The notes beneath the pieces are model-generated. The model was given only the letters and a program-made list of their open reading frames with translations. It was not told the DNA's origin and searched no databases. From Oceanispirochaeta sp. (GTDB taxonomy: Bacteria; Spirochaetota; Spirochaetia; DSM-2461): 64,000 nucleotides of DNA. This document shows, piece after piece, positions 1 to 16,761 of the stretch. The translations under genes were made by a program, and so were the position numbers. Each line of letters starts with the position of its first letter. Positions within the stretch are counted from its first letter, which is position 1. The DNA lies in assembly GCA_963666275.2 (NCBI GenBank), contig CAXXOA010000001.1, positions 64,001 to 128,000 on the forward strand, written 5' to 3'.

Positions 1-55
1 AGAGGCAAAAGGGCTCTATGCCTGCATTGAGCAGATCCATTTTCACTTTCGGTAA

Positions 56-83
56 TTGACATTTCCTGTATTTACCCTATTCT
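56..83 (+). promoter_or_regulatory. putative sigma70 promoter of lacI-family gene
   Basis: TTGACA (56-61), 16-nt spacer, TATTCT (78-83) upstream of ATG 120. Confidence 0.5.
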
Positions 84-119
84 TAAAAACATCAATTGAC
101 TGCAAAATAGTGAGAATCA

Positions 120-1130
120 ATGGCTGTCACAATTAAAGACATAGCCCGGATTGCCGGGGTTACCCATTCCACAGTCTCCCGTTGTCTCAATGACAAGCCG
201 GGGGTCTCGGATGCCAAAAGAGAAGAGATAAAGAAAATAGCCCGGGATCTCGGCTTTGAATATAATGCCAATGCCAGAAGTCTGAATACAAGTAAGACAG
301 GGACAATTGGTATCATCCTGAATGATGATGCCGACGACGATCAGCCCCATTTCTATACCAATACATTTCTCGGTCATATCAGGCACCAGCTGGAAGAGGA
401 GGATCTGGATATCCTCACAACATTCACAAGGAATAATATTTCCGGAAAGGATAATGTGGTCAGGCTTGTGAACCGGAAAAAGGTGGACGGCTTTATTATC
501 CTCAGTTCTTCGATTGATAAGAAAACAGTTGAATTCCTCAGGGATCAGAAAGTCCCGTTTGTTTTTTCCCATCAGATTCCCTCAAAATCTCTGGGAAATG
601 TTAACACTGTTTACTGCGACCATGCCAACGGAGGGTACCTCGCCACCAGACACCTTCTGGAACAGGGCAGAAAAAGGATCCTCTGTCTGACCAGACCCGA
701 AAAACGCTCGGAGTTTACCCAGAGGACCCTGGGGTATAAATCCGCCCTCATGGAGTTCGGGCTGGCCTATGATAAATCCCTTGTTGTTCATGGTGTGAAT
801 GATCTTACTGCAACTGACAGGATGGGAGAGATCCTTACCCCGTTTATCGGAAAAATCGACGGGATCTTTGCCCATACGGACATTATGGCCATTGCGGTGG
901 AAAAGGCCATGGAGAAGAAAGGCCTGAGGGTTCCCGACGACATCGCACTGGTGGGGTATGACAATATCAGCCTCTGTACTTTTGCTGAGCCGGCCCTGAC
1001 CTCGGTAGCTCAGCCTTCCAAAACCATTTCGGTGAAAACCTGTGAGATCCTCATTAAACTGCTGGCAGGAGAAGAGGTGAACAGCAAAATTATTGTTCCC
1101 CCCTGGCTTGTTATCAGAGATTCTGTCTGA
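120..1130 (+). CDS. LacI family transcriptional regulator (LacI-1)
   Basis: N-terminal HTH VTIKDIARIAGVTHSTVSRCLN, hinge NANARSL, C-terminal VPDDIALVGYDN and LTSVAQP motifs. Confidence 0.95.
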   Translation: MAVTIKDIARIAGVTHSTVSRCLNDKPGVSDAKREEIKKIARDLGFEYNANARSLNTSKTGTIGIILNDDADDDQPHFYTNTFLGHIRHQLEEEDLDILTTFTRNNISGKDNVVRLVNRKKVDGFIILSSSIDKKTVEFLRDQKVPFVFSHQIPSKSLGNVNTVYCDHANGGYLATRHLLEQGRKRILCLTRPEKRSEFTQRTLGYKSALMEFGLAYDKSLVVHGVNDLTATDRMGEILTPFIGKIDGIFAHTDIMAIAVEKAMEKKGLRVPDDIALVGYDNISLCTFAEPALTSVAQPSKTISVKTCEILIKLLAGEEVNSKIIVPPWLVIRDSV

Positions 1131-1164
1131 TCTTATTGTTTCTTCCCCTATAAAAAGAAAAAAC

Positions 1165-1236
1165 TTTACAAACTCATGATTGTGGAAGTATTATCAAAAA
1201 ACACGTGTGTGCAATAATAAAAGCACACGTGTGAAC
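1165..1236 (+). promoter_or_regulatory. promoter plus two CACACGTGTG palindromic operator boxes upstream of phytase gene
   Basis: TTTACA 1165-1170, 18 nt, TATTAT 1189-1194, then ACACGTGTGTGC (1201-1212) and GCACACGTGTGA (1223-1234); same architecture recurs at 2991-3041. Confidence 0.7.
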
Positions 1237-1382
1237 AAAAAAGTTTGAAATATTATGACGTCTGTTGTTTCAAGCTTTCCTGTTTTATTTTCCGGAAAAT
1301 ACTCGGATATGTCAGGCAGCTGCATTTCTGGCTGCCATTGCTTTACGTTTCTTTTCTACCAAATAAAAAGGAGATAGATTTA

Positions 1383-2780
1383 ATGAAACGGATAATTCTT
1401 TCATTTGCATTACTGGTTCTTTCTTTTTCACTGTTCGGCAAAGGGGCTCAGGAAGAGTCCCTTTATCTTGCCTCAAAGACTCCATATCCCTCACCGGCAG
1501 AAATCTCTGTTACGGCTCCGCCGGCAGGCTATGAACCATCATTCATATTTACGGTTAACAGGCATGGGTCAAGAAGCCTTTCCGGTTTCAAGTATGACAA
1601 GGGCTGGCTTGATATGCTTGCCGATGCTGATTCCCGTGGAGCCCTGTTGGATGAGGGGAGAAAACTCTGGGAAGATATCAAAGTGATTGCGGCTTTTGAA
1701 GAAGGAAAATACGGCCTGCTGACTCAACTGGGAAAAGACGAACTGTATGGGATCGGAAGCCGTGTAGGTGATGTCTATGGTGAAATGCTGACAAATGACA
1801 CTCTGATCAGAGCAGAGGCTACCTATAAAGAAAGAACTCAGGAATCGAGAGATAGTTTTCTTTCCGGCCTTGTTTCTGCCGGATATAAGGGAAATGCAGA
1901 TATCATGGCGTATGATAAAAAGAAAGATCCCTATCTGAGACCAATGGATCTGGCTACAAACTATAACAGATTCCTGGATGAGGGAGACTGGAACGACTAT
2001 CTTACCGCTTTCAGAGAGACTCCTGAGGCCAGTGCCATGTCCTACCGAATCTGTTCCCAGTTCTTTACAGATGAATACCTGAAGCTCCTTGATTCAGGAG
2101 AGCTGAAGTTCTACAAGGAAGGAGGAGAAGATGTTGTTATAAATAGTGTGGCAACGGCGGGATCCTGTCTTTTTGAACTATACATAATTCTTCCTTCTCT
2201 GAGAGAGGACGGCTTTGAAGGTATGAATCTGAGGAAATATTTCACTGATGAAGAACTGGCCATGTATCAGGAAGTACAGGGAGGAAAAAACTTTTTCAAA
2301 TACGGAGCCGGAAGACCGGAATATAACAATATTTCTCTGAATATTCTGGCACCTCTGGCCAAACGTTTTATAAATGAGACAGATCTGTATCTAAGCGGTG
2401 AGTCTCCCTATAAAGGTGTTTTCCTCTTTGCCCATGCAGAGACTGTTGTTCCCATGGAAGGATTCATGGAGATTGAAGGCAGCAACAAGGCCTACAGCGA
2501 TCTTTCTGAGGCTCTGGAAAACTGGCACGGTTACTATTATGGCCCCATGGGCGCAAATCTCCAGTTTATCCTGTTTACTTCTGAGGAGGGGGAACCTCTG
2601 GTTAAGGTCATGCTTAATGAAAGAGAGAGCACACTTTCTCCTTCACTGGAACCTGTTGAAGGACCATATTACAGTTGGAACGAAGTAAGAGCTTTTTATG
2701 CTAACAAGGTATCCACCCTTGGTATCTTTCTTGACAATACTCTGGAAGAGGATATTGAAGCTCTGAAAATAAAATTCTAG
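1383..2780 (+). CDS. exported histidine acid phosphatase, MINPP/phytase type (multiple inositol polyphosphate phosphatase-like)
   Basis: RHGSR catalytic motif, FAHAET (HAE proton-donor motif of MINPPs rather than HD), N-terminal SKTPY; signal peptide MKRIILSFALLVLSFSLFG; AAGGAG RBS before ATG 1383. Confidence 0.85.
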   Translation: MKRIILSFALLVLSFSLFGKGAQEESLYLASKTPYPSPAEISVTAPPAGYEPSFIFTVNRHGSRSLSGFKYDKGWLDMLADADSRGALLDEGRKLWEDIKVIAAFEEGKYGLLTQLGKDELYGIGSRVGDVYGEMLTNDTLIRAEATYKERTQESRDSFLSGLVSAGYKGNADIMAYDKKKDPYLRPMDLATNYNRFLDEGDWNDYLTAFRETPEASAMSYRICSQFFTDEYLKLLDSGELKFYKEGGEDVVINSVATAGSCLFELYIILPSLREDGFEGMNLRKYFTDEELAMYQEVQGGKNFFKYGAGRPEYNNISLNILAPLAKRFINETDLYLSGESPYKGVFLFAHAETVVPMEGFMEIEGSNKAYSDLSEALENWHGYYYGPMGANLQFILFTSEEGEPLVKVMLNERESTLSPSLEPVEGPYYSWNEVRAFYANKVSTLGIFLDNTLEEDIEALKIKF

Positions 2781-2804
2781 AAATCTGATATAATTTTTTA
2801 CTCG

Positions 2805-2840
2805 GGTGTGCTGAAATTAGCTTTCAGTACACCTTTTTTT
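2805..2840 (+). terminator. rho-independent terminator after phytase
   Basis: GGTGTGCTGAAA/TTTCAGTACACC stem followed by a T run. Confidence 0.8.
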
Positions 2841-2990
2841 ATAATTCAAGTTGGGATTATCAGCGCTTTGAACAGGATATCAGGAGTAGAAACAGCAGTT
2901 TGTTCAGGTTAGGGGCTGTTCTGAATAAACATTCCCGAAATCCGGTTTTCCTCTTCTCAAATATTCAGGAACTATTTATGAAAAAAAAAC

Positions 2991-3041
2991 TTTACAAATC
3001 ATGGGAGGGGGCGTATTATCAATAAAACGCACACGTGTGAG
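2991..3041 (+). promoter_or_regulatory. promoter plus GCACACGTGTGA operator upstream of ABC operon 1
   Basis: TTTACA 2991-2996, 17 nt, TATTAT 3014-3019, GCACACGTGTGA 3029-3040; matches the region at 1165-1236. Confidence 0.7.
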
Positions 3042-3085
3042 TTCTAGAAAAGGTGTATCGTGTGCATCGCAAAAATGGAGGTCTT

Positions 3086-4144
3086 ATGCGAGTTAAAATT
3101 ATTGCTTTACTGTCAGTTTCTCTTGTAGCTCTGGCATTGCTGATCGGGTGTATGGACAAAAAAGGAGATGCCGCCGCTGCGGGTGGAAAAAAATCCACAC
3201 ATCTGACCATCTACTGTGCTCTTCCCGAAACTGAAATCCCTTCCTATATCGAAGCTTTTAAAGAAGATACAGGTATTACTGTGGATTTTGTCCGACTCTC
3301 TGCAGGAGAAGTCCTTTCCAAAGTTCAGGTGGAAAAGAACAACCCCCAGGCCAGTGTCTGGTACGGTGGAAACTGTGACACTTTTATTGCCGCAGCTGGT
3401 AATGATCTTCTGGAACCATATGTTTCCCCTGAGCTGAAAAACATTCCTGAAAGCTATCAGGATCCCGAAGGATTCTGGTCGCCTGTCTATGTGGGAGCCC
3501 TTGCTTTCGCCGTAGACCGGGACTGGTTCAAAGAGAAGGGAATGGACTATCCCTCTTCCTGGAATGATCTTCTGGATCCCGTTTACAAGAATCAGATTTC
3601 CATGGCTCATCCCGGATCTTCGGGAACCGCCTATACCATCCTGGCCACTCTGGTTCAGATGCTGGGTGAAGACGAGGCGATGGATTATCTGAAAGAGCTG
3701 AATGCCAATATCCGTCAGTATACAAAATCCGGATCAGCTCCTCCCAAAAATGTGGGACTCGGTGAAGCCGCAGTAGGTCTCTCATTTTCCCATGACTGCC
3801 TGAAACCGGCTCTCCAGGGGTATCCAGTGGAAGTTTCTTTTCCCGAAGAGGGAACCGGATACGAAATCGGTGCGATTGCTCTGATCAAGGGCGGTCCCGA
3901 AGATGAAGTGGAAAATGCCAAAACTTTTATTGACTGGGTTCTCAGCAAAAAAGGCCAGGATATCTATTCCCAGAACGGTTCCTTCCGGCTGCCTGTCAAT
4001 GTGAACGCTCAGGTTCCCGAAGGGGCTGTGAATATCAAGGATCTTCCCATCATCGAGTATGATTTTATCTGGGCCGGTGAAAACCGGACACGACTGATTG
4101 AGAAATTTTCCGCCACCATCGCGGGGAAAGATAATCTGAAATAA
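3086..4144 (+). CDS. ABC transporter substrate-binding lipoprotein, AfuA/Fe3+/sugar-phosphate family
   Basis: lipobox LLIGC; RLSAGE, EKNNPQASVWYGG, PGSSGTAY, PEEGTGYEIG motifs; GGAGG RBS before ATG 3086. Confidence 0.85.
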   Translation: MRVKIIALLSVSLVALALLIGCMDKKGDAAAAGGKKSTHLTIYCALPETEIPSYIEAFKEDTGITVDFVRLSAGEVLSKVQVEKNNPQASVWYGGNCDTFIAAAGNDLLEPYVSPELKNIPESYQDPEGFWSPVYVGALAFAVDRDWFKEKGMDYPSSWNDLLDPVYKNQISMAHPGSSGTAYTILATLVQMLGEDEAMDYLKELNANIRQYTKSGSAPPKNVGLGEAAVGLSFSHDCLKPALQGYPVEVSFPEEGTGYEIGAIALIKGGPEDEVENAKTFIDWVLSKKGQDIYSQNGSFRLPVNVNAQVPEGAVNIKDLPIIEYDFIWAGENRTRLIEKFSATIAGKDNLK

Positions 4145-4154
4145 TTCCTTTTTC

Positions 4155-4207
4155 GTTTCTTCCGGAGTCTACGCAAGGGTTCTCCGGAATTCTGCTCCGG
4201 AAGAAAC
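4155..4207 (+). other. intercistronic stem-loop after binding-protein gene
   Basis: GTTTCTTCCGGAG...CTCCGGAAGAAAC 13-bp inverted repeat without T tail; typical mRNA-stabilising hairpin. Confidence 0.6.
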
Positions 4208-4233
4208 ACCCCAATATAACGACAGGATTTACT

Positions 4234-5910
4234 ATGACCAACTCTTTAAAAGATTTAACCTGGAAACTGAAAATGCTCGGGAAGGAACCGGTCCTCCTGG
4301 CTTTTATCATTATCCTTATAGCCCTGCTGACTCTCTTCGTCATGTTTCCGCTCTTTATGATACTGCGTTACAGTATCTCAACCGAAGAGGGCAGGCTTTC
4401 TCTGGACACTGTTGTGTCTGTTCTTAAAAACAGTTCCTACAGAACCACTTTTTTCAACAGTATCAAGCTGGGTGTTATCTCAGCGGTGATTGCGACAATA
4501 ATCGGGTATTTATTTGCCTTTACCATAACCAGAACAGAAGCCCCTTTTAAGGGATTTCTCAAAACCATGGCAACCCTTCCGGTTATCTCACCCCCCTTTG
4601 TTCTCTCCCTTTCCATTATCTTCCTCTTCGGAAGAAAGGGACTGATAACCAATGGCCTGCTGGGTATAACCGATTTTAATGTCTATGGCATGCACTCTCT
4701 CATTCTTGTGCAGTCCATCTCGTTTTTTCCGGTAGCCTATCTCACCCTTTCGGGGATCCTGCAGGCCATAGATTCTTCTGTGGAGGATGCGGCTCTGAAC
4801 CTGGGTGCCTCCCGGTGGAAAATTTTCTGGACTGTCACCTTTCCCCTCTCCCTTCCAGGGATTTTCAGCGCCCTTCTTCTTGTTTTCATCCAGTCCCTGC
4901 AGGATTTCAGCAATCCCGCGGTTATCGGCGGGGGATTCCCCACCCTGGGGGTCGAGGCCTACAGAGTCATCACCGGAATGTACGACCTGAGAACCGGAGC
5001 AATCCTTTCGATCATGCTCCTGGTTCCCAGTCTGATCGCCTTTCTGCTGCAGAAGTACTGGGTCAGCGGCAAAGGGTTTGTTACAGTCACGGGAAAGCCC
5101 TCCCAGAACCGGACCAAACTGGACGAAAAACACATTGTCATTCCCCTTGTGGGATTCTGCCTTCTCTTTAGCGGCGTGATCGTTCTGTTTTACGGTACCG
5201 TGATCGGAGGGGCCTTTGTAAAGGTCTGGGGCGTGGACTACTCTCCCACGTTCAATCACTTCAGATATGTTTTCTCCATAGGGTTCAAACCTCTGAAGAA
5301 TGCGGTACTTCTGGCTGTGATCGCCACCCCGCTGACGGGGCTCGCCGGTATGGCCATAGCCTTCCTGACAGTCCGTAAAAGCTTTATCGGTAAAAAGTAT
5401 ATGGGCCTGGCCTCTCTTCTGACTTTTGCCCTCCCGGGGACCGTGGTGGGAATCAGTTTTATCCTTGCCTTCAATGACAGGCCTTTCCTGCTGACAGGTA
5501 CCGCACTGATCCTCATCTGTGTTTTTGTATTCCGGAACCTGCCGGTAGGTATCGAAGGAGCGACGTCCGCTTTAATGCAGATAGATCCCTCCATTGAAGA
5601 GGCTGCAGTGAACATGGGGGCCAACAGCTTTCAGACATTTTTCCATGTCACTCTGCCTCTCATAAAAGGGGCATTCTTTTCGGGACTTGTCTACTCCTTT
5701 GTGCGGGCCATGACGGCGGTCAGCGCCATCATCTTTCTGGTTTCAGCCCGGTGGAATGTGGTTACCACAAGAATCTTTTCCCTCTTTGAAGTCAGTCAGT
5801 ACAGCGATGCCGCCGCGTATATCGTCATCATGATAGCTGTGATTATCACAGCCATTTATATTCTCAACAATCTGGTCGAGCGCATCAGTCCGGATCAAAA
5901 AAACAAATAA
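4234..5910 (+). CDS. ABC transporter permease, AfuB/FbpB type (two fused permease domains)
   Basis: many hydrophobic segments, two EAA loops (EDAALNLGAS, EEAAVNMGAN). Confidence 0.92.
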   Translation: MTNSLKDLTWKLKMLGKEPVLLAFIIILIALLTLFVMFPLFMILRYSISTEEGRLSLDTVVSVLKNSSYRTTFFNSIKLGVISAVIATIIGYLFAFTITRTEAPFKGFLKTMATLPVISPPFVLSLSIIFLFGRKGLITNGLLGITDFNVYGMHSLILVQSISFFPVAYLTLSGILQAIDSSVEDAALNLGASRWKIFWTVTFPLSLPGIFSALLLVFIQSLQDFSNPAVIGGGFPTLGVEAYRVITGMYDLRTGAILSIMLLVPSLIAFLLQKYWVSGKGFVTVTGKPSQNRTKLDEKHIVIPLVGFCLLFSGVIVLFYGTVIGGAFVKVWGVDYSPTFNHFRYVFSIGFKPLKNAVLLAVIATPLTGLAGMAIAFLTVRKSFIGKKYMGLASLLTFALPGTVVGISFILAFNDRPFLLTGTALILICVFVFRNLPVGIEGATSALMQIDPSIEEAAVNMGANSFQTFFHVTLPLIKGAFFSGLVYSFVRAMTAVSAIIFLVSARWNVVTTRIFSLFEVSQYSDAAAYIVIMIAVIITAIYILNNLVERISPDQKNK

Positions 5911-5924
5911 AGGAAGACTTGAAA

Positions 5925-7055
5925 ATGAAAGATCATTTTGAGGAAGAAATAAAAGCCAAAAGCAGCGGATTGAAAATGGTCAATCTGACAAAGAAATTTT
6001 CCAGTCACGACGGGACAGGGGAGTTCACAGCTGTGGATTCAATCAACCTGGAGATCAAGTCAGGGGAACTGACCACACTCCTGGGGCCTTCGGGCTGCGG
6101 AAAAACAACCACCCTCCGTATGGTGGCGGGGTTTGAGAGCATCACTTCCGGGTCCCTCCTTCTGGGAGATGAGTCCATTGAGTCGGTTCCTCCCAATAAA
6201 AGGGATATGGCCATGATGTTCCAGAGCTACGCCCTTTTTCCCCATATGACAGTCTACAACAATATCCGTTACGGACTGAAAATTCAGAAACTGCCGGAGA
6301 AGGAGATTGAGGAAAGGACCAACAAGATCATCGATCTTATGCAAATCCGGGGTATGGAAAACAGACTCCCTTCAAAAATCTCCGGAGGACAGCAGCAGAG
6401 AGTCGCCCTGGCCAGAGCTGTGGTGATTGAGCCCAAAGTCCTGCTATTCGACGAACCCCTTTCCAATCTGGATGCCAAACTGAGGGAGTATATGAGAGAC
6501 GAGCTCCGGTCCCTTCAGCAGAGGCTGGGAATTACAAGTCTCTATGTCACCCATGACCAGTCAGAAGCCATGGCCATCAGCGACAAGGTCGTCCTTATGA
6601 ATGAGGGACGGATTCAGCAGGTGGGATCTCCCGCGGAACTCTATAACGAACCGGCCTCTCTCTTCGTAGCGGATTTCATCGGCAAATCCAACTTTCTGCC
6701 CTGTCTGGTGGCTTCCCGGTCCGCCGATGGAGCTGTCGCTTCCATACTGGGGGAGAATTTCCTTCTGAAAGCTCCGGGTAAAGCCTATACGGGAGAAACC
6801 GGAGAGATGACCGCCGTCATAAGGCCCGAAGCTGTCAAACTGGTCGATCCGGAGGAGGAAAAACTCACAGGTGTGGTCCGGAAGGCCATTTTCTTCGGCA
6901 ATTTTGTGGAGTATGAGGTCCGGGTAAAGGACAGAAATTTGCGAATCGAATCCTACTGTCCCCAGGAACAGAAAATCTACAGGGTCAACGATCCGGTGGG
7001 TATCCGGTTCAACCTTGAAAGTATCCGTCTTCTGGAAGAGTCGGAAAAGGACTGA
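5925..7055 (+). CDS. ABC transporter ATP-binding protein, AfuC/PotA type
   Basis: Walker A GPSGCGKTT, signature ISGGQQQR, Walker B LLFDEP, C-terminal TOBE-like region; alternative TTG start 5919. Confidence 0.95.
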   Translation: MKDHFEEEIKAKSSGLKMVNLTKKFSSHDGTGEFTAVDSINLEIKSGELTTLLGPSGCGKTTTLRMVAGFESITSGSLLLGDESIESVPPNKRDMAMMFQSYALFPHMTVYNNIRYGLKIQKLPEKEIEERTNKIIDLMQIRGMENRLPSKISGGQQQRVALARAVVIEPKVLLFDEPLSNLDAKLREYMRDELRSLQQRLGITSLYVTHDQSEAMAISDKVVLMNEGRIQQVGSPAELYNEPASLFVADFIGKSNFLPCLVASRSADGAVASILGENFLLKAPGKAYTGETGEMTAVIRPEAVKLVDPEEEKLTGVVRKAIFFGNFVEYEVRVKDRNLRIESYCPQEQKIYRVNDPVGIRFNLESIRLLEESEKD

Positions 7056-7060
7056 ATCCT

Positions 7061-7867
7061 ATGAAAAGCGCATATAAACTGGTGGTCTGTGATCTCGACG
7101 GAACTCTGGTCAATGAGGAAAAGCAGATCTCCCGGAAGAACCGGGAGGCCATTGAACAGTTCCGGGAGTGCGGAGGTGAAATCACTTTTGCGACCGGCAG
7201 GATCGAAAAATCCGTCAAAAAGTACGCCACTGAGCTGAATGTCCGTGTTCCCATGATCCTCTATAACGGTGCCAGGATCTATCATCCCGAAACAGGGGAT
7301 GTGGTCCGGGATCTGACCCTCTCGGCATCAGAAGTCGGAAAAGCGGTTGAACTGATGGAACAGTTCCCCTTCGACTATATTTTCTACTCCGCAGGAGAGG
7401 CCTATATTCTGAAGTCCACTGAAGCCGTCCGGACCTATGAAAAAGGGGATGGATTCCAGTGCGTAGTGGATCCGGACATTGAAAAGATATCCCGGCTGAA
7501 GATAACCAAAATCCTGATGATCGGGGATAACAGATATTTCGAAGATTTCAGACGGCAGTTTCAGGCCGATCCGGAATGCCGGGCCAATCTGGTCCAGTCT
7601 GAGAATACCTACCTGGAAATACTCCCCGAAGGAGTTAACAAGGGAAATGCCCTGGAGGTCCTCTCTGATCATCTTGGTATTCCCATGAAGGAGATCATCT
7701 GCTTCGGAGACAATCTGAATGATCTGGAGATGATTGTCAGAGCCGGAGTGGGCGTAGCCATGTCCAACGGGCGTGAGGAAGTCCGGGCTGCCGCAGATAT
7801 TGTGGCCCCAAGCAATAATGAAGATGGAGTGGGAAGCGTTCTGACTTCCCTGATGGAGGAATCGTAA
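7061..7867 (+). CDS. Cof-type HAD-IIB phosphatase
   Basis: DLDGTL motif I, ATGR motif II, KG motif III, FGDNLND motif IV. Confidence 0.93.
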   Translation: MKSAYKLVVCDLDGTLVNEEKQISRKNREAIEQFRECGGEITFATGRIEKSVKKYATELNVRVPMILYNGARIYHPETGDVVRDLTLSASEVGKAVELMEQFPFDYIFYSAGEAYILKSTEAVRTYEKGDGFQCVVDPDIEKISRLKITKILMIGDNRYFEDFRRQFQADPECRANLVQSENTYLEILPEGVNKGNALEVLSDHLGIPMKEIICFGDNLNDLEMIVRAGVGVAMSNGREEVRAAADIVAPSNNEDGVGSVLTSLMEES

Positions 7868-8742
7868 TGAAGGATATTACAATGGTAGGTCATATATCCA
7901 GGGATATCATGATCTATGAGGAGGAGACTCAGCGTTTTACAGGAGGGCCGGTCATCTACTCTTCCGTGGCTGCGGCCCGTTCGGGAGCCCGGGTGCAGGT
8001 GATCACGGCCTGCAGCGAAGAAGACGACAGGTCTCTGGATGTCATGAGAGATAACGGAGTGGATGTGGTCCGCCTGGAATCGGAAACTTCCACGAGTATT
8101 GAAAATATCTATCTATCTGCCGACAGGGAGAGGCGGAAAGTCACACTCCTGTCCCAGGCTGTTCCCTTCAGCACGGAGAATTTCCCGGAAACAGAGAGCC
8201 GGATCTATCATCTGGCAGGGCTTTTCCGGGGGGAGATTCCCGATGACTTTATTCCCTATTTTGCAGCAAAAGGACGCCTGGGGATTGATGCGCAGGGACT
8301 GCTGCGCTGCAGTGAAGAGGGCAAGCTCCTCTTCCGGAACTGGGAGAATATGGATGACCTGATGCCCCATGTCTCCTTTTTCAAGGTCGATGCCGCGGAA
8401 GCCGAGATCCTGACAGGATTGAATAACCGGGAGGAAGCGGCAAAGGTTCTTGCCGGGAAGGGCGCTGATGAGGTCGTCCTGACCCATAATAATGAGGTCC
8501 TTGTCGTGGCGGAGGGGAAGGTTTTCCGGGCGCCCTACAATCCGTCGAATCTGTCGGGAAGGACCGGACGGGGAGATACCACCTTTGCCGCCTACATGGC
8601 CAGGAGGCTCAGCGCCGGACCGGAGGAGAGCACCTATTACGCCGCGGCCCTCTGTTCCATCAAAATGGAGCAGCCCGGTCCTTTTTCCGGAACTGAAGAG
8701 GATGTGTACAAGCGGATGGAGGCGATAGGGTTCAGAGCCTAG
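7867..8742 (+). CDS. PfkB/ribokinase-family kinase with PPi-dependent myo-inositol-kinase signature (kinase 1)
   Basis: GRTGRGDT replaces canonical DTTGAGD; also FKVDAAEAE, APY, SIKME, DAQGLLR, TSIEN; translationally coupled (TAATG) to HAD gene. Confidence 0.85.
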   Translation: MKDITMVGHISRDIMIYEEETQRFTGGPVIYSSVAAARSGARVQVITACSEEDDRSLDVMRDNGVDVVRLESETSTSIENIYLSADRERRKVTLLSQAVPFSTENFPETESRIYHLAGLFRGEIPDDFIPYFAAKGRLGIDAQGLLRCSEEGKLLFRNWENMDDLMPHVSFFKVDAAEAEILTGLNNREEAAKVLAGKGADEVVLTHNNEVLVVAEGKVFRAPYNPSNLSGRTGRGDTTFAAYMARRLSAGPEESTYYAAALCSIKMEQPGPFSGTEEDVYKRMEAIGFRA

Positions 8743-8745
8743 GAG

Positions 8746-8799
8746 TCTTTCCCTTTGAGGGCGGTAAAATTGTGAAATAATCCGCCTGAAAGGGAAAGA
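8746..8799 (+). terminator. stem-loop ending cluster 1
   Basis: TCTTTCCCTTT-GAGGGCGG...CCGCC-TG-AAAGGGAAAGA inverted repeat right after kinase stop; no + strand T tail. Confidence 0.5.
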
Positions 8800-8805
8800 A
8801 AAAAA

Positions 8806-8854
8806 TTGACGGATCCTTTTTACCGTAGTACTATTACTTAAACGTTTTAGTAAT
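8806..8854 (+). promoter_or_regulatory. promoter and LacI-type operator of LacI-2
   Basis: TTGACG 8806-8811, 17 nt, TACTAT 8829-8834, overlapping palindrome ATTACTTAAACGTTTTAGTAAT 8833-8854. Confidence 0.75.
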
Positions 8855-8863
8855 GAGGGTCAA

Positions 8864-9871
8864 TTGAGAGTTACCATAAAGGATATTGCCAGAAAAGCCG
8901 GAGTTTCTCCGGCTGCCGTATCCAAGGCATTGAATGGTCAGCCTGATATAGGAGAGGCCACCAGAGAGAATATCCTGCGCATAAGCAGGGAGCTGGGGTA
9001 CACGCCGAATATGATCGCCAGGAACCTTGTGAAGAAGGGAAATAAAACCGTAGGCGTTCTGATTCCGGATATCTCCACTCCGATCTATCCGGTGATCTAT
9101 AAAGGGATCAACGAAAGGGCCATGGAGTACGGGTATACTCTCTTTCTGGGTGATACAAAAAGGGATCTGGCAAATGAGCGGAAGTATATTGCCACCATGA
9201 TGGAAAACAGAGTGGCAGGACTACTTGTCAGTCCGGTGAGCAATGATATTTCCCATCTTGAGGAGGTTGTACAGAATCAGATACCAGTCATTTATTTCGG
9301 CGGTAAAGTCAATGAATCCATGAATGATTACATTGGTATTGATAATTTGCGGGGAGGAGCTCTGGCAGTTGAACATCTGACAGAACTGGGGCATCAGCGG
9401 ATTACCATGATCTGTGATGACCTGAATACCAGAACCCGGCATGACAGGGTGGAAGGATACAGAAAGGCGATGATCCAACGCGGTCTGACTCCTGATGTCT
9501 TTATCGACGATGAAGGCCTGAAGGGGAGAGAGTGCGGCAGTGCGGCTATCAACAGGATTCTGAAACGGAATCAGAAAGTTCCCACGGCGGTTTTTGCCCT
9601 GAATGACCTGATGGCTATCGGGGTCATGGAAGCTCTCAATACAGCAGGATTGCGGGTTCCCGAAGATATTTCTGTAATGGGTTACGATGATATCCCTTTT
9701 GCATCCCTTCCCATGATCGGTCTATCCACCATCTGGCAGCCCAAGTTTGAGACAGGTGAAATGGCTCTGGAGCAGCTGCATCACAGGATCATCAGAGATA
9801 ACTGGGAGGGGGAGAGACAGGTGGTACTGCAGCCGGAGCTGAGAGTCCGGACATCGACCTGCAGGGTCTGA
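8864..9871 (+). CDS. LacI family transcriptional regulator (LacI-2)
   Basis: VTIKDIARKAGVSPAAVSKALN HTH, YTPNMIARNL hinge, VPEDISVMGYDD; TTG start with GAGG RBS. Confidence 0.95.
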   Translation: MRVTIKDIARKAGVSPAAVSKALNGQPDIGEATRENILRISRELGYTPNMIARNLVKKGNKTVGVLIPDISTPIYPVIYKGINERAMEYGYTLFLGDTKRDLANERKYIATMMENRVAGLLVSPVSNDISHLEEVVQNQIPVIYFGGKVNESMNDYIGIDNLRGGALAVEHLTELGHQRITMICDDLNTRTRHDRVEGYRKAMIQRGLTPDVFIDDEGLKGRECGSAAINRILKRNQKVPTAVFALNDLMAIGVMEALNTAGLRVPEDISVMGYDDIPFASLPMIGLSTIWQPKFETGEMALEQLHHRIIRDNWEGERQVVLQPELRVRTSTCRV

Positions 9872-9887
9872 TATTTTTTTTAATTTG

Positions 9888-9906
9888 TTACTAAAACGTT
9901 TAAGTA
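9888..9906. promoter_or_regulatory. second copy of LacI-2 operator
   Basis: TTACTAAAACGTTTAAGTA is the exact reverse complement of 8835-8853. Confidence 0.75.
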
Positions 9907-9935
9907 TATGTTTAATTTTCCTGAAAGGAGTCCCT

Positions 9936-10628
9936 ATGGGGAAGTATAAGTATGAAATTCACGCCCATACGGCGGAAGTCAGCAGCTGCGGTCATGTAAA
10001 GGCGGCAGATGCTATAGCCCTGTACAAAGAGGCAGGGTATCAGGGCATTGTTTTTACAGATCATTTCAACCGGGAGTATTTTGACAGGCTCGATGGAATG
10101 GGCTGGGAGGAGATGATCGATGCTTTTCTGGAGGGGTACAGAAGTGCCCTGCCGGCGGCGCAGGCCCTTGATATGGATGTTTTCTGGGGAGTGGAACTCC
10201 GCTTTACAGAAAACGATAACGACTATCTGGTTTATGGCCTGGAAGAGGATTTTCTGAAAAGTCTGCCCTTTGTTCACACAACTTCCATAAAGGAGTTTAT
10301 GGAGCAGATCAGCAGCAGACCGGATATCCTTGTCTTTCAGGCTCATCCCTTCAGAGACGGCTGTTCTCTGGTGGATCCTCTGATTGTTGACGGACTGGAA
10401 GTTCATAACGGGAATCCCCGGCATGATTCCAGAGATGCACTGGCCGCGGAAATCGCCAGGGAGAATAACCTTCTTATTCTTTCGGGTTCGGACTTTCACA
10501 GGACGGGAGATCTGGCAACGGGAGGAATCATTTTACCCGAAAGAGTTGCATCCATGGGGGAATTTGTCTCCCGTGTGAAAAAACTGGACTGGGAATCACT
10601 CATAGTAAAGGAACGGGTATGCAGATAA
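9936..10628 (+). CDS. PHP-domain phosphoesterase
   Basis: HAHT, TDH, GVE, AHP, EVHNG, GSDFH metal-binding motifs; AAGGAG RBS before ATG 9936. Confidence 0.88.
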   Translation: MGKYKYEIHAHTAEVSSCGHVKAADAIALYKEAGYQGIVFTDHFNREYFDRLDGMGWEEMIDAFLEGYRSALPAAQALDMDVFWGVELRFTENDNDYLVYGLEEDFLKSLPFVHTTSIKEFMEQISSRPDILVFQAHPFRDGCSLVDPLIVDGLEVHNGNPRHDSRDALAAEIARENNLLILSGSDFHRTGDLATGGIILPERVASMGEFVSRVKKLDWESLIVKERVCR

Positions 10629-11377
10629 AGACAATTCTTTTTGATATGGGAGGGACCCTGGAGGACATCCATTATTCCGATAATGTCCCCCAGATCATAG
10701 GGAAAAGGATGGAGGAGATCCTTGAAATTCCCTTTGAAAAGATTACGGAGAAAAACGGCACTGATTTTTACAGTCACCTCCAGGGCCGCTATAAAGAGTA
10801 TCGGGATTTCAGGGAGAAAACCTGTATAGAGGTTCATCCCGCCATGGTATGGAAAGACTGGATTCTCAAGGGCCTGCCGGTGCCTGACTCCATTATTTTC
10901 GATAATCATGAAAAGCTGGCCTATTTCTGGGAAACCGAAGTGATCCAGCGCAGATGCCGCACAGAAGCGGTGGAAATGCTGAATGAGATCCGGAAAAGAG
11001 GAATCCGGATGGGAATAATAAGCAATACAGGCAGCTTCACCCAGGTTTACAAATCCCTGGATAAATACGGTATCCGGGATTTCTTTGAAAAAATTGCCCT
11101 TTCCGCAGACTACGGAATCAGAAAGCCTCATGGTTTTCTTTTCCGGGACATTATTAATCAGATGGGATGCGAAGCGGAAAATACACTTTATGTGGGTGAT
11201 ACGGTTTCCCGTGATGTAGTGGGCGCCAGGAACGCCGGACTGTACGGGTCTATTCAGATCTGCTCAGAGTTCACAAAACTGAGTGATCAGGAGCACAGTC
11301 CCGGAATCAAACCCGATTACATCATTCATGATCTGATGAGTATTCCCGAAATCGTGGACCGTATTAATCAGATCTGA
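10619..11377 (+). CDS. HAD-IA family hydrolase
   Basis: FDMGGTL motif I, ISN motif II, RKP motif III, YVGDTVSRD motif IV. Confidence 0.88.
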   Translation: MQIKTILFDMGGTLEDIHYSDNVPQIIGKRMEEILEIPFEKITEKNGTDFYSHLQGRYKEYRDFREKTCIEVHPAMVWKDWILKGLPVPDSIIFDNHEKLAYFWETEVIQRRCRTEAVEMLNEIRKRGIRMGIISNTGSFTQVYKSLDKYGIRDFFEKIALSADYGIRKPHGFLFRDIINQMGCEAENTLYVGDTVSRDVVGARNAGLYGSIQICSEFTKLSDQEHSPGIKPDYIIHDLMSIPEIVDRINQI

Positions 11378-11409
11378 AAGGAGGAAATTGTGAAAAAAAG
11401 GAGATATCT

Positions 11410-13248
11410 ATGGAAAATATAATCCAATCGGCAGTTTATGATAAATGGACAGGCAAAATCCGCTGCTCCATAAACAGAGCTGTCAATTATATACGAGACC
11501 CTCAGAATCTTCTGAGTGTGGTTTCTATCATTCTGCTGATCTATCTTGTGGCTTTTCCCCTCTGGGAAATCTTAAGTACCACATTTCAGCTTCAGTTCCG
11601 GGATTCCATGAAAACAGGCATTCCCGAAGGGTCATTCACGCTGCGCTACTGGGCATCCACCTTTGCCAGCGAAATCAGTAAGGCCATGTTTTACAAACCC
11701 CTGATGAATTCTCTGATGATTTCATTAAGTGTTTCGTTTTTCGGCATTATGATCGGAGGAATACTGGCCTGGCTGGTTTCCAGGACCGACCTGCCCATGA
11801 AGAAATTCTTCTCGTTCATCCTGGTGGTAGCCTATATGGTTCCCTCCTGGTGTAAAGCTCTTGCCTGGCAGGTTATGTTCAAGAACGACAGGATCGGAGG
11901 ACATCCGGGGATGTTTCAGGCCATTACCGGAGTCAGTCTTCCCGACTGGTTCTCCTACGGCTTTGTTCCCATTGTGGTGACCCTGTCGCTGCACTATTTT
12001 GTTTTCTCTTTTCTGCTGATCTCTTCCGCTCTGGCTTCCATCGGGGGAGACCTGGAGGAAATGGCAGAAATTACAGGGGCCAAACGGGGAACCATCCTGA
12101 GGAAAATTACTTTTCCCCTGGTCCTCCCGGCCATTCTGTCCTCATTTATTCTGACTTTTTCAAAAGCCATCGGTTCTTTCGGCGCTCCCGCTTTTCTGGG
12201 GCTGAAAGTAAACTATTACACTCTTTCCACCATGATCTATGCCAATATCAGGAACAGAATGACCACTCAGGCATTCACCCTGGGAATCGTTCTGATGGTT
12301 GTGGCCAGTTTTACTGTCTACCTCAACCAGAAAGCTATCGGTAAAAGGAAGAGTTTTACCACCATCGGCGGAAAAAGCACAAGAAAGAACTTCATCAAGC
12401 TGAAAAAGCTGAAACCGGTGATTACGGCTCTGGTTCTGCTCTTTGTTATTCTCGGAGTGATCATGCCCCTGGTGGTGCTGGTCCTTCAGAGTGTTATGCT
12501 CACCGAAGGAGTCTACAGCCTGGATAATCTGACCCTCCATTTCTGGATAGGCGATGGAAACCCGGCTATTGCCGACGGAGAAGCCGGTATCTTTCATAAT
12601 CCGCGTATATGGAAAGCCCTTTTCAATACCCTGAGGCTTGTCTTTATTGTGTCCATTATAGCAACTGTGGCGGGACTGCTTCTGGGGTATCTCATATCCC
12701 GGGGAAGAAGGAAAATGAGCGGCAGATTTATTGAACAGATCTCTTTTACGCCCATGCTGATTCCCTCTATTGCCCTGAGTACCATTTATCTCTCCATGTT
12801 TTCCAAACCCCAGCTGTTTCTGCCGGTGCTCTACGGAACATTTGCCCTGCTTGTGCTTATCAGTATTGTCAAATATCTGCCCTTTGCGGTCCGTTCCGGA
12901 ACCAGCAGCATGATGCAGATCAATACGGAGCTGGAAGAGGCGGCCAAGATTGAAGGAACCCCCTGGGTGAAAATCTTTTCAAAGCTAATCCTTCCCCTGG
13001 CAAAGGGCGGTGTCTTCAGTGCTTTTCTTCTGATCTTTATCAGCGGAATGAAAGAACTGGCGCTGATTATGCTTCTGGTTACTCCTGAAACAGCCACCCT
13101 TACCACTTTGACCTACGCCTATACAGAGTCGGGGTTTGAGCAGTTTTCCAATGCCATTACTACACTGATCATTTTTATCATTATCACTGTGAACTTTATT
13201 GCTCGGAAAGTGAGCAAAGCGGACATTTCCAAAGGAATAGGAGGTTGA
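11410..13248 (+). CDS. ABC transporter permease, Fe3+/FbpB type
   Basis: multi-TM protein, two EAA-like loops (EEMAEITGA, EEAAKIEG). Confidence 0.9.
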   Translation: MENIIQSAVYDKWTGKIRCSINRAVNYIRDPQNLLSVVSIILLIYLVAFPLWEILSTTFQLQFRDSMKTGIPEGSFTLRYWASTFASEISKAMFYKPLMNSLMISLSVSFFGIMIGGILAWLVSRTDLPMKKFFSFILVVAYMVPSWCKALAWQVMFKNDRIGGHPGMFQAITGVSLPDWFSYGFVPIVVTLSLHYFVFSFLLISSALASIGGDLEEMAEITGAKRGTILRKITFPLVLPAILSSFILTFSKAIGSFGAPAFLGLKVNYYTLSTMIYANIRNRMTTQAFTLGIVLMVVASFTVYLNQKAIGKRKSFTTIGGKSTRKNFIKLKKLKPVITALVLLFVILGVIMPLVVLVLQSVMLTEGVYSLDNLTLHFWIGDGNPAIADGEAGIFHNPRIWKALFNTLRLVFIVSIIATVAGLLLGYLISRGRRKMSGRFIEQISFTPMLIPSIALSTIYLSMFSKPQLFLPVLYGTFALLVLISIVKYLPFAVRSGTSSMMQINTELEEAAKIEGTPWVKIFSKLILPLAKGGVFSAFLLIFISGMKELALIMLLVTPETATLTTLTYAYTESGFEQFSNAITTLIIFIIITVNFIARKVSKADISKGIGG

Positions 13249-13249
13249 T

Positions 13250-14392
13250 ATGAGCCGGATTGAATTGAATAAGGTAAATAAATTTTATGATAAAGTGCAT
13301 ATCCTCAAAGATGTGGACCTGGTAATAGAACAGGGCGATTTCATGACCCTTCTGGGCCCCTCTGGCTGTGGGAAAACCACCACGCTCCGGGTCATTTCGG
13401 GACTGGAGAATCCCCAGAGCGGGACTGTTGTTATCGACGGTCAGTCTGTGGCTGATCCTGTGACCGGAAAATTCGCCCCTCCCTCCAAAAGGAATCTGAA
13501 TCTTGTTTTTCAGAGCTATGCGCTCTGGCCCCATATGACTGTATTTGACAATGTGGCATTCGGTCTGACAGTTAAAAAAGAGCCAAAAAGTGAAATAAAG
13601 AAAAAAGTCATGGCCGCTCTGGAGAAAATGCAGATAGCCGAGTACGCCGAAAGGTATCCTTCCGAGCTTTCAGGAGGTCAGCAGCAGAGGGTCGCCATTG
13701 CCCGGGCGATCGTTTCCCAGCCCAAGATCCTCCTGCTGGATGAACCTCTTTCCAACCTGGATGCCAAGCTCCGGGTGGATATGAGAGCCGAGCTGAAAAG
13801 GCTGCATAAGGATCTGAAAACCACCATTATCTATGTGACTCACGATCAGGTGGAGGCTCTGACCCTCTCTTCAAAGATTGCTGTTTACTTCGAGGGGGTT
13901 CTTACCCAGTGCAATACCCCGTCGGAAATCTATAACAATCCATCCACCCTCAAGGTGGCGGAGTTTATCGGTAATCCTAAAATCAACTTTATCAAAGGGG
14001 TCGTTAATGACATGGAGAAGGGGCAGCTCAAGGTGAAAAGCTCCTTCGGAGAGATTTCTCTCAAAGATATCGATGCCAGAGACAGTGGGATTGTAAAACT
14101 CTTCAGTGAGAATAATCCGGGATCCGAGGTGACCCTTGCCATCCGTCCAGAGGACATTCTTGTTTCCAGAGAGAAGGCGGAAGGGGCTTTCCCCTGCACA
14201 GTCGTTTCCATTCTGCCCGCCGGATCGGAAACCCTTCTGGAACTGGAAATGGGAGATTCTCTGCTCATGGCCAAAGAGATTGGTCAGCACCGGTATGAAA
14301 TGGGCGATGTCCTGTTTGCCACGTTAAAGCAGGAGAGGATGAATGTGTATGAGAACGGAGAGGGATCCCTGGTGGTTCGTGCCGTTGACTGA
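13250..14392 (+). CDS. ABC transporter ATP-binding protein
   Basis: GPSGCGKTT, LSGGQQQR, LLLDEP. Confidence 0.95.
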   Translation: MSRIELNKVNKFYDKVHILKDVDLVIEQGDFMTLLGPSGCGKTTTLRVISGLENPQSGTVVIDGQSVADPVTGKFAPPSKRNLNLVFQSYALWPHMTVFDNVAFGLTVKKEPKSEIKKKVMAALEKMQIAEYAERYPSELSGGQQQRVAIARAIVSQPKILLLDEPLSNLDAKLRVDMRAELKRLHKDLKTTIIYVTHDQVEALTLSSKIAVYFEGVLTQCNTPSEIYNNPSTLKVAEFIGNPKINFIKGVVNDMEKGQLKVKSSFGEISLKDIDARDSGIVKLFSENNPGSEVTLAIRPEDILVSREKAEGAFPCTVVSILPAGSETLLELEMGDSLLMAKEIGQHRYEMGDVLFATLKQERMNVYENGEGSLVVRAVD

Positions 14393-14473
14393 GACCAATA
14401 AGGGTTAGGTTCGGGAAACTCCCCGCAAGGGGATTTCCTGATAATAATAGATTCTATTCTAAAGGAGCGTTCT

Positions 14474-15646
14474 ATGTTGAAAATGAGAAAGGTCGGATTT
14501 TTTCTATTTACCGCACTTCTGGTATTGTCTTTTTCCGGATGCAGTAAAAAAGCCGCGGACACTGTTCAGGCCGTCGAAGAAAAAAGTTGGGACGAGCAGG
14601 TCGGTCTGGCCGAAAACCTGAGCACCGAGGAACTGTATGAGAAAGCCAAGGAGGAAGGCACAGTTACAGTTTATTCCATGTCCAGCAGATTCAACGATGT
14701 AAAGGAGACTTTTGAAGCTCAGTATCCCGGGGTCGAAGTTGTCGTTTATGACATGAGAAACTCGGAAATTCTGGAAAAATTCCAGAGAGAGCATGAGGCG
14801 GGCATTAGAAATGCGGATCTTCTTTTTGTGAAAGATACGGATGGCGCCGTGTACAATGAGTTTGTCAGAATGGGACTGCTGAAAGAGTTCGTCCCCCAGG
14901 ATATGATGAAAACCGCCCCTGCCAGTTTTCAGAAAGGCGGCTATGCTCCCTATTTTGAAATGAAGCAGGTGTTCTACAATACCGAAGTCTATGATTCCTG
15001 TCCTATCGACAGCTGGTGGGATCTGACCCGGCCTGAATACAGGGGAAAAATCATACTGAGAAGTCCCATTGAAAACTCTGAAATCATGGGTCTTTTTACA
15101 GCGATTGTGAAAAACAGTGACGAAATGGAACAGGCTTATAAAAAAGAGTTCGGCCAGGACATTGTGCTGAATGACACTAAAAATGCCGGTTTTGAGTTCC
15201 TGAAAAGACTGACAGACAATGACCTTATCGTGATGACCAGTGATACGGACATCGTCGAAGCCGTGGGAACTCCCGGACAGATTGATCCTCCCTTCGGAAT
15301 CGCCACTTCCAGTAAAATGCGGAAAGCCGGTCCCAACCTGATGATCAATGTTGCGGAAGATCTCTCCCCCCGTCTTGGTATTGTCGATCCGGCCTACCTT
15401 TACATCGCCGATCACTCCGAGCACGTGAATGCGGCCAAACTGGTTATGAGATGGGTCGGCGGAGAAGCTGATGGATCCGGAGCCGGATTCAATCCCTTCC
15501 ATGTCAGGGGTTCCTGGCCTTCCAGAGCGGATGTTGAACCTGTTCAGACTCCTGCCCTGGCGTCTCTGAATCTCTGGGATCTGGACCTGGAATACAACTA
15601 CAGCGTTCTGGATGATATGAGAAATTTCTGGATTACCCTGCAGTAA
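14474..15646 (+). CDS. ABC transporter substrate-binding lipoprotein (Fe3+/phosphoester-binding family)
   Basis: lipobox FSGC; AKEEGTVTVYS, FEAQYPGV, FYNTE, SWWDL, NAAKL motifs; AAGGAG RBS. Confidence 0.85.
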   Translation: MLKMRKVGFFLFTALLVLSFSGCSKKAADTVQAVEEKSWDEQVGLAENLSTEELYEKAKEEGTVTVYSMSSRFNDVKETFEAQYPGVEVVVYDMRNSEILEKFQREHEAGIRNADLLFVKDTDGAVYNEFVRMGLLKEFVPQDMMKTAPASFQKGGYAPYFEMKQVFYNTEVYDSCPIDSWWDLTRPEYRGKIILRSPIENSEIMGLFTAIVKNSDEMEQAYKKEFGQDIVLNDTKNAGFEFLKRLTDNDLIVMTSDTDIVEAVGTPGQIDPPFGIATSSKMRKAGPNLMINVAEDLSPRLGIVDPAYLYIADHSEHVNAAKLVMRWVGGEADGSGAGFNPFHVRGSWPSRADVEPVQTPALASLNLWDLDLEYNYSVLDDMRNFWITLQ

Positions 15647-15658
15647 GTTAAAAAAACG

Positions 15659-15682
15659 GGACAGCCTGAGTGCAGGCTGTCC
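15659..15682. other. stem-loop between binding protein and kinase 2
   Basis: GGACAGCCTG-AGTG-CAGGCTGTCC perfect 10-bp stem. Confidence 0.6.
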
Positions 15683-15704
15683 TATCTGAAAAGGATATTT
15701 CACA

Positions 15705-16583: not shown

Positions 16584-16612
16584 AGCCTGTACGGGGAAAA
16601 ACACTTTCTTTT

Positions 16613-16644
16613 ACAGAAAGGTCTCTTTAATGAGCCCTTTCTGT
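16613..16644. terminator. hairpin between convergent genes
   Basis: ACAGAAAGG...CCTTTCTGT inverted repeat. Confidence 0.45.
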
Positions 16645-16761
16645 CTCACTATTTTCACCTTCTAATATCAATTTCCCGCTGTATATCTGGATATTCAGGA
16701 ATAATCAGTTATCAGGATAATGAAATACTGTTGAGAACACCCATCTTTACTGCAATGACTT

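Follow-up and report, generated by a model that had tools for sequence, protein, structure and literature searches.

A candidate inositol-phosphate regulon joining an exported MINPP-type phosphatase, an AfuABC-type importer and a pyrophosphate-type kinase in Oceanispirochaeta sp.

We analyzed a 64-kb stretch of the genome of Oceanispirochaeta sp. (hereafter, the window; C1:64001-128000 in a genome of 5.27 Mb, 3 contigs and 97% completeness). The closest named relatives of the encoded proteins are from Oceanispirochaeta and Sediminispirochaeta. At its start lie genes for a LacI-family regulator, an exported histidine phosphatase of the MINPP (multiple inositol polyphosphate phosphatase) type, the three components of an AfuABC-type ABC importer, a HAD phosphatase and a PfkB-family kinase. 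Our data suggest that these genes belong to a substrate-induced regulon for inositol phosphates, most likely phytate-derived, a reading to which we assign a probability of roughly 60%. A preliminary description of this DNA had listed these seven genes between positions 120 and 8742, and all of them were found there on the plus strand, but the list overlooked a second cluster directly downstream (cluster B), two AfuABC-type systems upstream and a third operator site elsewhere in the genome, and it assigned no role to the kinase. Families were assigned using Pfam and NCBIfam, and only the Cof-type HAD-IIB phosphatase passed an equivalog cut-off. The features are collected in Table 1.

Table 1. 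Genes and control elements of the two clusters (positions are those of the window)
Feature	Position	Strand	Basis or remark
LacI-family regulator LacI_A	120-1130	+	Pfam LacI and Peripla_BP_3; candidate repressor of GCACACGTGTG(A/C)
Promoter-like P1, TTTACA / 18-nt spacer / TATTAT	1165-1194	+	near-identical to P2
Two operator copies	1200-1234		degenerate core 1200-1209; 12-mer GCACACGTGTGA 1223-1234
MINPP-type histidine phosphatase	1383-2780	+	His_Phos_2 PF00328, E 2.5e-19, residues 57-412
Terminator-like hairpin, 13 pairs, then T-run	2804-2834	+	
Promoter-like P2, TTTACA / 17-nt spacer / TATTAT	2991-3019	+	
Operator GCACACGTGTGA	3029-3040		kept before SBP_A orthologues in L006, L008 and L102
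Lipoprotein substrate-binding protein SBP_A, AfuA branch	3086-4144	+	lipobox LLIGC
AfuB-type fused double permease A	4234-5910	+	Pfam, NCBIfam
ABC ATPase with TOBE domain	5919-7055	+	Pfam, NCBIfam
Cof-type HAD-IIB phosphatase	7061-7867	+	TIGR00099, 206.7 bits vs cut-off 137; best solved relative 1nf2
TM0415-type PfkB kinase A, predicted pyrophosphate-dependent	7867-8742	+	GRTGRGD; TM0415 (1vk4/5ysp), E 1.2e-54
Cluster B promoter-like site; distinct LacI-type palindrome ATTACTTAAACGTTTTAGTAAT	8806-8834; 8833-8854	+	
LacI-family regulator B (LacI_B)	8864-9871	+	Pfam
PHP-domain phosphoesterase	9936-10628	+	Pfam; PHP-kinase fusions exist
HAD-IA phosphatase	10619-11377	+	Pfam, NCBIfam
AfuB-type fused permease B	11410-13248	+	~25% identity to permease A
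ABC ATPase B	13250-14392	+	
Lipoprotein binding protein SBP_B	14474-15646	+	lipobox FSGC
TM0415-type kinase B	15705-16583	+	61% identity to kinase A; N78 position L

The phosphatase begins with MKRIILSFALLVLSFSLFG, a signal-peptide-like N-terminus without cysteine. Its NRHGSRS segment aligns with GRHGARF of the Bacteroides thetaiotaomicron Minpp (BtMinpp; 4fdt, E = 1.5e-37), and the HAE proton-donor tripeptide lies within FAHAETV, which is identical in the two proteins. The 14 solved sequences matched at E ≤ 0.01 are all MINPPs or histidine acid phytases, and the MINPP clade carries HAE in place of the HD of classical acid phytases. The placement of this protein in the MINPP clade, first proposed from RHGSR and HAE, is therefore sustained by its best solved relatives, and our analysis supports its being a MINPP-clade branch 2 histidine phosphatase with predicted activity on inositol hexakisphosphate (InsP6). 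It resembles BtMinpp (4fdt/5cx4) and the Bifidobacterium MINPP phytases (6rxd, 6rxf) in branch 2 membership, RHGxR, HAE, full-length alignment and export, but differs from them in that common operators tie the gene to an importer operon, the activity is a predicted one, and the RHGxRxP motif reads RHGSRSL; the final proline is replaced by leucine in all four spirochaete homologues that we aligned. A second MINPP paralogue (~50-52% identity, with a signal-like N-terminus) is encoded among efflux and regulator genes at C2:1207744-1209066 (L005:9631-11079).

The importer had been described as one of the AfuABC sugar-phosphate kind despite the iron annotation usual for such systems, and the comparison of SBP_A with solved proteins agrees. 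Its best relatives are 8x1a (6.1e-75), AfuA (4r72, 8.5e-71) and the pyridoxal phosphate (PLP)-binding protein P5PA (6wce, 3.7e-58), whereas true Fe-binding proteins of the FbpA, SfuA and YfuA types match at 1e-16 or worse. According to the available text of the AfuA study (PMC4546632), AfuA binds sugar phosphates (glucose 6-phosphate [G6P], fructose 6-phosphate [F6P] and sedoheptulose 7-phosphate [S7P]) and not iron, with the sugar bound by H205, D206 and E229 and the phosphate by S37 and T150, and its authors used the H205/D206/E229 triad to define homologues. The equivalent residues H236, D237, E260 and T181 are kept in SBP_A, and the position of S37 is occupied by A73, with S72 adjoining. 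Two upstream paralogues retain the triad, as do 16 of the 17 relatives taken from other loci, with one divergent sequence as the exception; being common to the whole A-type family, the triad cannot tell an inositol phosphate from a hexose phosphate. The system thus shares its branch, its fused double permease and its TOBE ATPase with AfuABC of Actinobacillus pleuropneumoniae and Citrobacter rodentium (4r72-4r75; PMC4546632) and with P5PA, but here the importer genes are co-transcribed with a HAD phosphatase and a pyrophosphate (PPi)-type kinase and co-regulated with a MINPP, the S37 equivalent is alanine, and the predicted ligand is an inositol phosphate in place of G6P, F6P or S7P. Two more AfuABC-type transporters, one of them beside a histidine kinase gene, lie just upstream of the window (C1:54068-63896; L087:2068-11896). 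The binding proteins of these two share 48% and 40% identity with SBP_A and retain the H/D/E/T ligand residues, and four such importers accordingly stand in a row.

The start codon of kinase A overlaps the stop codon of the Cof HAD gene by 1 base. The RxGRGD signature of ribokinase-family kinases that depend on PPi was defined for TM0415 of Thermotoga maritima (Nagata et al. 2018; available text of PMC5931981), and the earlier suggestion that this motif marks kinase A as a TM0415-type enzyme fits both its match to that protein and the residues that it retains. More specifically, the donor-site signature K171/F221/R229/R232/M266 reads K, Y, R, R, M in kinase A and K, F, R, R, M in kinase B, the F221 position being F in 15 and Y in 9 of 24 aligned homologues. 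All four myo-inositol contacts (D11, N78, Q141, and R145) are present in kinase A, N78 being replaced by L in kinase B, and the pocket residues I76 and L116 are kept, with S89 changed to V. Kinase A is therefore like TM0415 (1vk4, 5ysp; PMC5931981; encoded in the TM0411-TM0416 inositol operon) in RxGRGD, in four of five donor residues with the fifth a conservative change, in its inositol contacts and in its linkage to inositol genes and an importer. It differs in the S89 position, in the occurrence of two paralogues in tandem clusters, and in being linked to AfuABC-type importers and HAD or PHP phosphatases instead of the oxidative pathway found in T. maritima.

Among 24 longer kinase homologues (E ≤ 1e-30), one joins a Cof HAD to the kinase (P0121), four are PHP-kinase, two are GDPD (glycerophosphodiester phosphodiesterase)-kinase and one is a metallo-beta-lactamase-fold-kinase fusion; the remainder comprises ten with an iron-type alcohol dehydrogenase-like region, five with an unassigned extra region and one apparent artifact. 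Elsewhere, single proteins thus combine the types that are neighbors in the window, on the one hand those of the Cof HAD and kinase A and on the other those of the PHP protein and kinase B. The ten dehydrogenase-like fusions (PF13685, PF00465, PF25137) are protein clusters of ~910 amino acids (P0124, P0126-P0133, and P0141). According to the preliminary description, TM0415 itself adjoins an inositol-phosphate transporter, as was reportedly found by Rodionova and colleagues (2013).

The phosphatase and importer genes had been proposed to form two transcription units with a promoter and operator in common. Indeed, P1 and P2 are each embedded in near-identical AAAAAACTTTACAAA...GTATTATCAA stretches with the same TTTACA and TATTAT hexamers, a hairpin followed by a T-run divides the phosphatase unit from the importer operon, and the palindrome core CACACGTGTG is found exactly at 1224 and at 3030, with a 1-mismatch copy at 1200. 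The operators are palindromes with a central CG, lie 4-10 nt past the -10 hexamers and are repeated ahead of co-regulated units. With at most 1 mismatch allowed, the core has 4 matches in the window against 0.47 expected, a number reached in 1 of 100 shuffles. In the 5.27-Mb genome, the 12-mer GCACACGTGTGC occurs at 3 sites with ≤1 mismatch, namely, before the MINPP gene, before the SBP_A gene and before a gene encoding a Na_Pi_cotrans domain together with PhoU (Na/Pi-PhoU). Since the zero-order expectation is ~9.8 sites, it is the placement of these sites that stands out and not a genome-wide over-representation. The third site (C2:140158; L086:8159) lies between -35-like and -10-like hexamers directly ahead of the Na/Pi-PhoU gene, which adjoins a cluster of DeoR, Ugp-like transporter and GDPD genes (L086:8197-14778 region).

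The adjacent LacI_A is probably the repressor that would bind these operators. Its orthologue occupies the same place ahead of the MINPP gene in a metagenome contig (L102), and it sits after cluster B in two other loci (L006 and L013). The 180-nt MINPP leader (1200-1385) folds far better than its shuffled versions (z = -4.1), partly because the two operator copies pair together, and it contains an additional hairpin at 1315-1336. Rfam gave no match at E ≤ 0.1 over positions 1-17000 of the window.

Cluster B (8806-16583) is a tandem paralogous operon that directly follows the first cluster and has its own promoter and LacI-type palindrome. SBP_B has no close relative among solved or curated proteins. 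Cluster B probably serves the use of other inositol-phosphate isomers, perhaps more highly phosphorylated ones, in the manner proposed below for the first cluster.

A separate iol locus of the host (C2:1889000-1908900, L092) codes for an inositol ABC transporter and a LacI regulator, for IolG (370.8 bits, cut-off 355), IolD (941 against 715) and IolE (410.7 against 290), and for an IolB-like protein. This locus contains neither IolC nor IolJ, and no protein of the genome exceeds the IolC cut-off (best score, 119.5 bits against 300). It therefore resembles the Bacillus subtilis iol operon in IolG, IolE, IolD, an IolB-like protein and an inositol ABC transporter (C2:1893-1903 kb), but differs from it in lacking an IolC over cut-off, and it stands apart from the window under its own LacI. 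Upstream of the iol locus are genes for an acylating aldehyde dehydrogenase and a methylmalonyl-CoA decarboxylase alpha-like protein, which hint at a variant lower pathway. No Inos-1-P_synth domain, the mark of myo-inositol-phosphate synthase (MIPS), was found in this 97%-complete genome. In addition, the host encodes a PPi-dependent phosphofructokinase (849 bits against 588) and two H+-PPases.

We searched genome contigs with an alignment of 24 kinase homologues; from the 571 relatives confirmed in this way, we retained the best 80 loci, and neighboring genes were counted by tblastn with the window proteins at ≥50% coverage. An AfuB-type fused permease was found in 30 of the 80 loci (in 12 of the 28 with ≥6 kb on both sides of the kinase), an A- or B-type binding protein in 26, LacI in 24, HAD or PHP in 18, GDPD in 9, and one particular major facilitator superfamily transporter in 6; Pfam added a HAD to six further loci. 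The loci surveyed include some from Atribacterota, and the counts agree with a widespread pairing of importer and kinase. DeoR, Ugp-like transporter and GDPD genes stand beside the kinase in 9 to 12 loci. Such genes recall the Ugp/GlpQ system of glycerophosphodiester uptake, which is likewise an organophosphate importer with a cytoplasmic esterase, but its transporter is of another family and it lies outside the clusters of the window. Iol-like genes adjoin the kinase in L023 (IolE-, IolD-, and IolG-like) and in L051 (IolB and a class II aldolase). Half of the importer-linked loci (15/30) show no HAD or PHP in the stretch available, and in 10 of the 30 the ATPase gene is immediately followed by the kinase gene, both on one strand. 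Six Clostridia-type loci (L061, L066, L067, L079, L084, and L085) carry 3-5 tandem HAD-IA paralogues by LacI, PHP and the kinase, an arrangement suggestive of a stepwise removal of several phosphates.

The neighborhood survey that the preliminary description had proposed uncovered related arrangements elsewhere. The metagenome contig L102 repeats the layout LacI_A-MINPP-SBP_A-permease together with both operators, with LacI_A at 63%, MINPP at 54%, SBP_A at 74% and the permease at 83% identity and operators before the MINPP and SBP_A genes; scanning metagenomes with the MINPP as the starting point yielded only 2 loci, of which one was informative. L006 shows a perfect palindrome with the same promoter ahead of SBP_A, and another ahead of an open reading frame of 1009 amino acids (L006:2095-5124) between MINPP and SBP_A for which neither a Pfam match nor a homologue in our own genome was found. 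L008 has two operator copies before an SBP_A-permease-ATPase-Cof HAD operon and one before the kinase, with a DeoR-Ugp-GDPD operon between them.

We also examined a phylum sample of 301 genomes, in which a MINPP occurs in 2 (our own genome and G250); 6 have the kinase, among them the two with a MINPP. Because the genomes of this sample include kin, which are not independent, and our own is an ascertainment case, only G250, a complete genome from a different spirochaete family, counts as a test of the MINPP-kinase linkage. In G250, a single same-strand array begins with a GDPD-kinase fusion (529 aa), a Ugp-like binding protein and two permeases, GH123 and an AraC regulator, continues with IolB, IolD (905.9 bits, over cut-off), an IolG-like protein, an EEP phosphatase and HAD-IA, and ends with permease B, ATPase B, four tandem SBP_B paralogues and a MINPP; an IolE-like gene is nearby. 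The four SBP_B paralogues of this array are served by one permease/ATPase pair; they, the MINPP and the GDPD-kinase fusion lie in L097:10946-15753 and L098:13539-15128.

Collectively, the comparisons of the phosphatase with MINPPs and of the kinase with TM0415 and the survey of gene neighborhoods all support the inositol-phosphate reading of the preliminary description, the basis of which is genomic inference. We propose the following route. The Sec-exported MINPP would act outside the cytoplasm, stripping phosphates from phytate or from lower inositol phosphates, and the AfuA-branch lipoprotein would capture a lower inositol phosphate and hand it to the AfuBC-type importer. The ligand of SBP_A is probably a monophosphate because an AfuA-like pocket for a polyhydroxylated ring and one phosphate is kept. 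In the cytoplasm, the Cof HAD and the TM0415-type kinase may process the imported ester, the kinase coupling inositol and inositol phosphate to PPi and phosphate (Pi), and free myo-inositol would pass to the separate iolG/E/D/B locus. Both units would be held through GCACACGTGTG(A/C) by a repressor of the LacI type, probably LacI_A, and the co-regulated Na/Pi-PhoU transporter would handle the Pi released.

Several observations weigh against this route. A MINPP was found in only 1 of the 80 kinase loci (L006, the closest relative), and its rarity among the genomes of the phylum sample (2/301) points in the same direction, so that the phytase link would be recent and lineage-restricted. The 80-locus sample itself is biased toward TM0415-type kinases since its retrieval patterns included RTGRGDT..F, and related genomes are non-independent observations. 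The second MINPP paralogue of the host has no operator and no transporter nearby, and the retention of the triad in SBP_A may leave room for a hexose-phosphate ligand. As to the kinase, the available text of PMC5931981 gives TM0415 a Km of 12 mM for myo-inositol and records its authors' doubt that inositol is the true acceptor; pairing a phosphatase with a kinase within one operon also looks futile if both act on inositol.

Two alternatives draw on these same observations. The first is general organophosphate or hexose-phosphate scavenging, in which the importer would be a true AfuABC orthologue for G6P, F6P and S7P, the phosphatase a broad acid phosphatase and the Na/Pi transporter the outlet for Pi, with inositol being incidental. 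We consider this unlikely. It would accommodate the conserved H/D/E triad and T150, the third operator before the Na/Pi-PhoU gene, and the four AfuABC-type systems in a row, which together with the Ugp-GDPD system suggest broad organophosphate foraging, but an imported hexose 6-phosphate requires neither a phosphatase nor a PPi kinase, and kinase A keeps 4/4 of the TM0415 inositol contacts. Moreover, the G250 array unites a MINPP and a related importer with IolG-, IolD- and IolB-like genes, and control is of the LacI type, which is usually substrate-responsive, with no Pho-type control seen.

The second alternative holds that the substrates are inositol esters derived from lipids, such as glycerophosphoinositol and inositol 1-phosphate from eukaryotic or plant debris, with the MINPP being a recent accessory in few lineages. 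The scarcity of MINPPs would follow naturally, as would the DeoR, Ugp-like and GDPD genes by the kinase, the existence of GDPD-kinase fusions, the position of our third operator site next to the DeoR-Ugp-GDPD cluster, and L008, where an unbroken stretch holds the AfuABC-HAD operon, the Ugp-GDPD operon and the kinase, all with the operator in common. However, the MINPP is joined to the importer, physically and by operators, across the window, L102 and G250, and MINPPs act on higher inositol phosphates. For these reasons we doubt lipids as the principal source, although phytate and lipids do not exclude each other as sources. A ferric-iron or 2-aminoethylphosphonate importer accompanied by an ordinary ATP-dependent, ribokinase-type sugar kinase is what the best NCBIfam names (phnS2, PhnU2, and PhnT2) and the iron-transporter titles of solved relatives would suggest, but we reject it as very improbable on scores and gene context: phnS2 (243.9 against 392.75) and PhnU2 (288.9 against 593.25) fall far under their cut-offs, Fe-binding proteins match SBP_A at 1e-16 or worse against 1e-71 for AfuA, a sugar-phosphate binder in the available text of PMC4546632, no phosphonate-cleaving genes were seen at positions 1-17000 of the window, and the kinase has Arg, Tyr and Met at the ATP-pocket positions of TM0415.

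Within the inositol-phosphate reading, three roles of the kinase were weighed. One tentative possibility is that TM0415-type kinases run in reverse (inositol phosphate + Pi -> inositol + PPi), acting as phosphotransferases that conserve the energy of the ester. By the same token, which we likewise hold loosely, esters brought in by AfuABC-, InoEFGK- or Ugp/GDPD-type import may be banked as PPi in anaerobes with a PPi economy. Textbook free energies put the reaction only a few kJ/mol uphill, and an excess of cellular Pi over PPi could therefore drive it. Of the three roles, the reverse reaction best explains the importer-kinase operons without a phosphatase, including those in which the kinase directly follows the ATPase, and it fits the PPi economy of the host. 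It would also explain the high inositol Km of TM0415 and the fusions of the kinase to phosphatases and GDPD. The lack of a known phosphatase in the inositol operon of T. maritima, which does encode a phospho-inositol importer, would be explained as well. The available text of the TM0415 paper (PMC5931981) contains no discussion of a reverse reaction for this enzyme.

A second role, that of a general PPi-dependent substitute for IolC, was not adopted and is regarded as a minor possibility, as four of the six kinase genomes have no IolD at E ≤ 1e-100. In its favor, the IolD-positive genomes (our own and G250) have no IolC over cut-off, and an IolJ-like aldolase and IolB are found by the kinase in L045, L051 and L070. 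The third role, the supply of inositol 3-phosphate for inositol lipids in a host without MIPS, was not adopted either, given that the gene lies in LacI-controlled, catabolic-type operons, often in two copies.

The genes that follow cluster B (region 16762-26482) are unrelated to the regulon. They encode a DUF4421 protein (16762-17790, minus strand), a HEPN protein (18330-18710), a pyruvate:ferredoxin oxidoreductase of 1171 amino acids (18938-22453, minus strand), a STAS/anti-sigma kinase-like protein (22739-23626), and a SpoIIE-type phosphatase (23644-24858, minus strand).

Each part of the system is of a known kind. What stands out is their combination: operators link a MINPP gene to an importer of the AfuABC type, a HAD phosphatase and a PPi-type kinase, alongside a paralogous cluster and a co-regulated phosphate transporter. 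In keeping with the preliminary description, this combination was not found described as one regulon in the literature searched, and a full-text search returned no inositol-phosphate importer tied to a phytase. To our knowledge, bacterial uptake and use of phytate breakdown products are poorly known, and work on phytases ends at the exported enzyme. The candidate regulon looks like an undescribed bacterial route for feeding on plant phytate.

The locus is thus a concrete, conserved and tractable candidate, offering a binding protein, a repressor-operator pair and two paralogous clusters to compare. It would also give a physiological setting to the only known PPi-dependent kinase of the ribokinase family, the substrate and role of which have been open since its description in 2018. 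A further prediction is that, in the genomes of anaerobes, many proteins called "iron ABC transporters" or "ribokinases" bear the wrong name and belong to organophosphate pathways. If the kinase does run in reverse, this would constitute a new route of energy conservation, and phytate would serve as a source of phosphorus, carbon and phosphoryl-bond energy.

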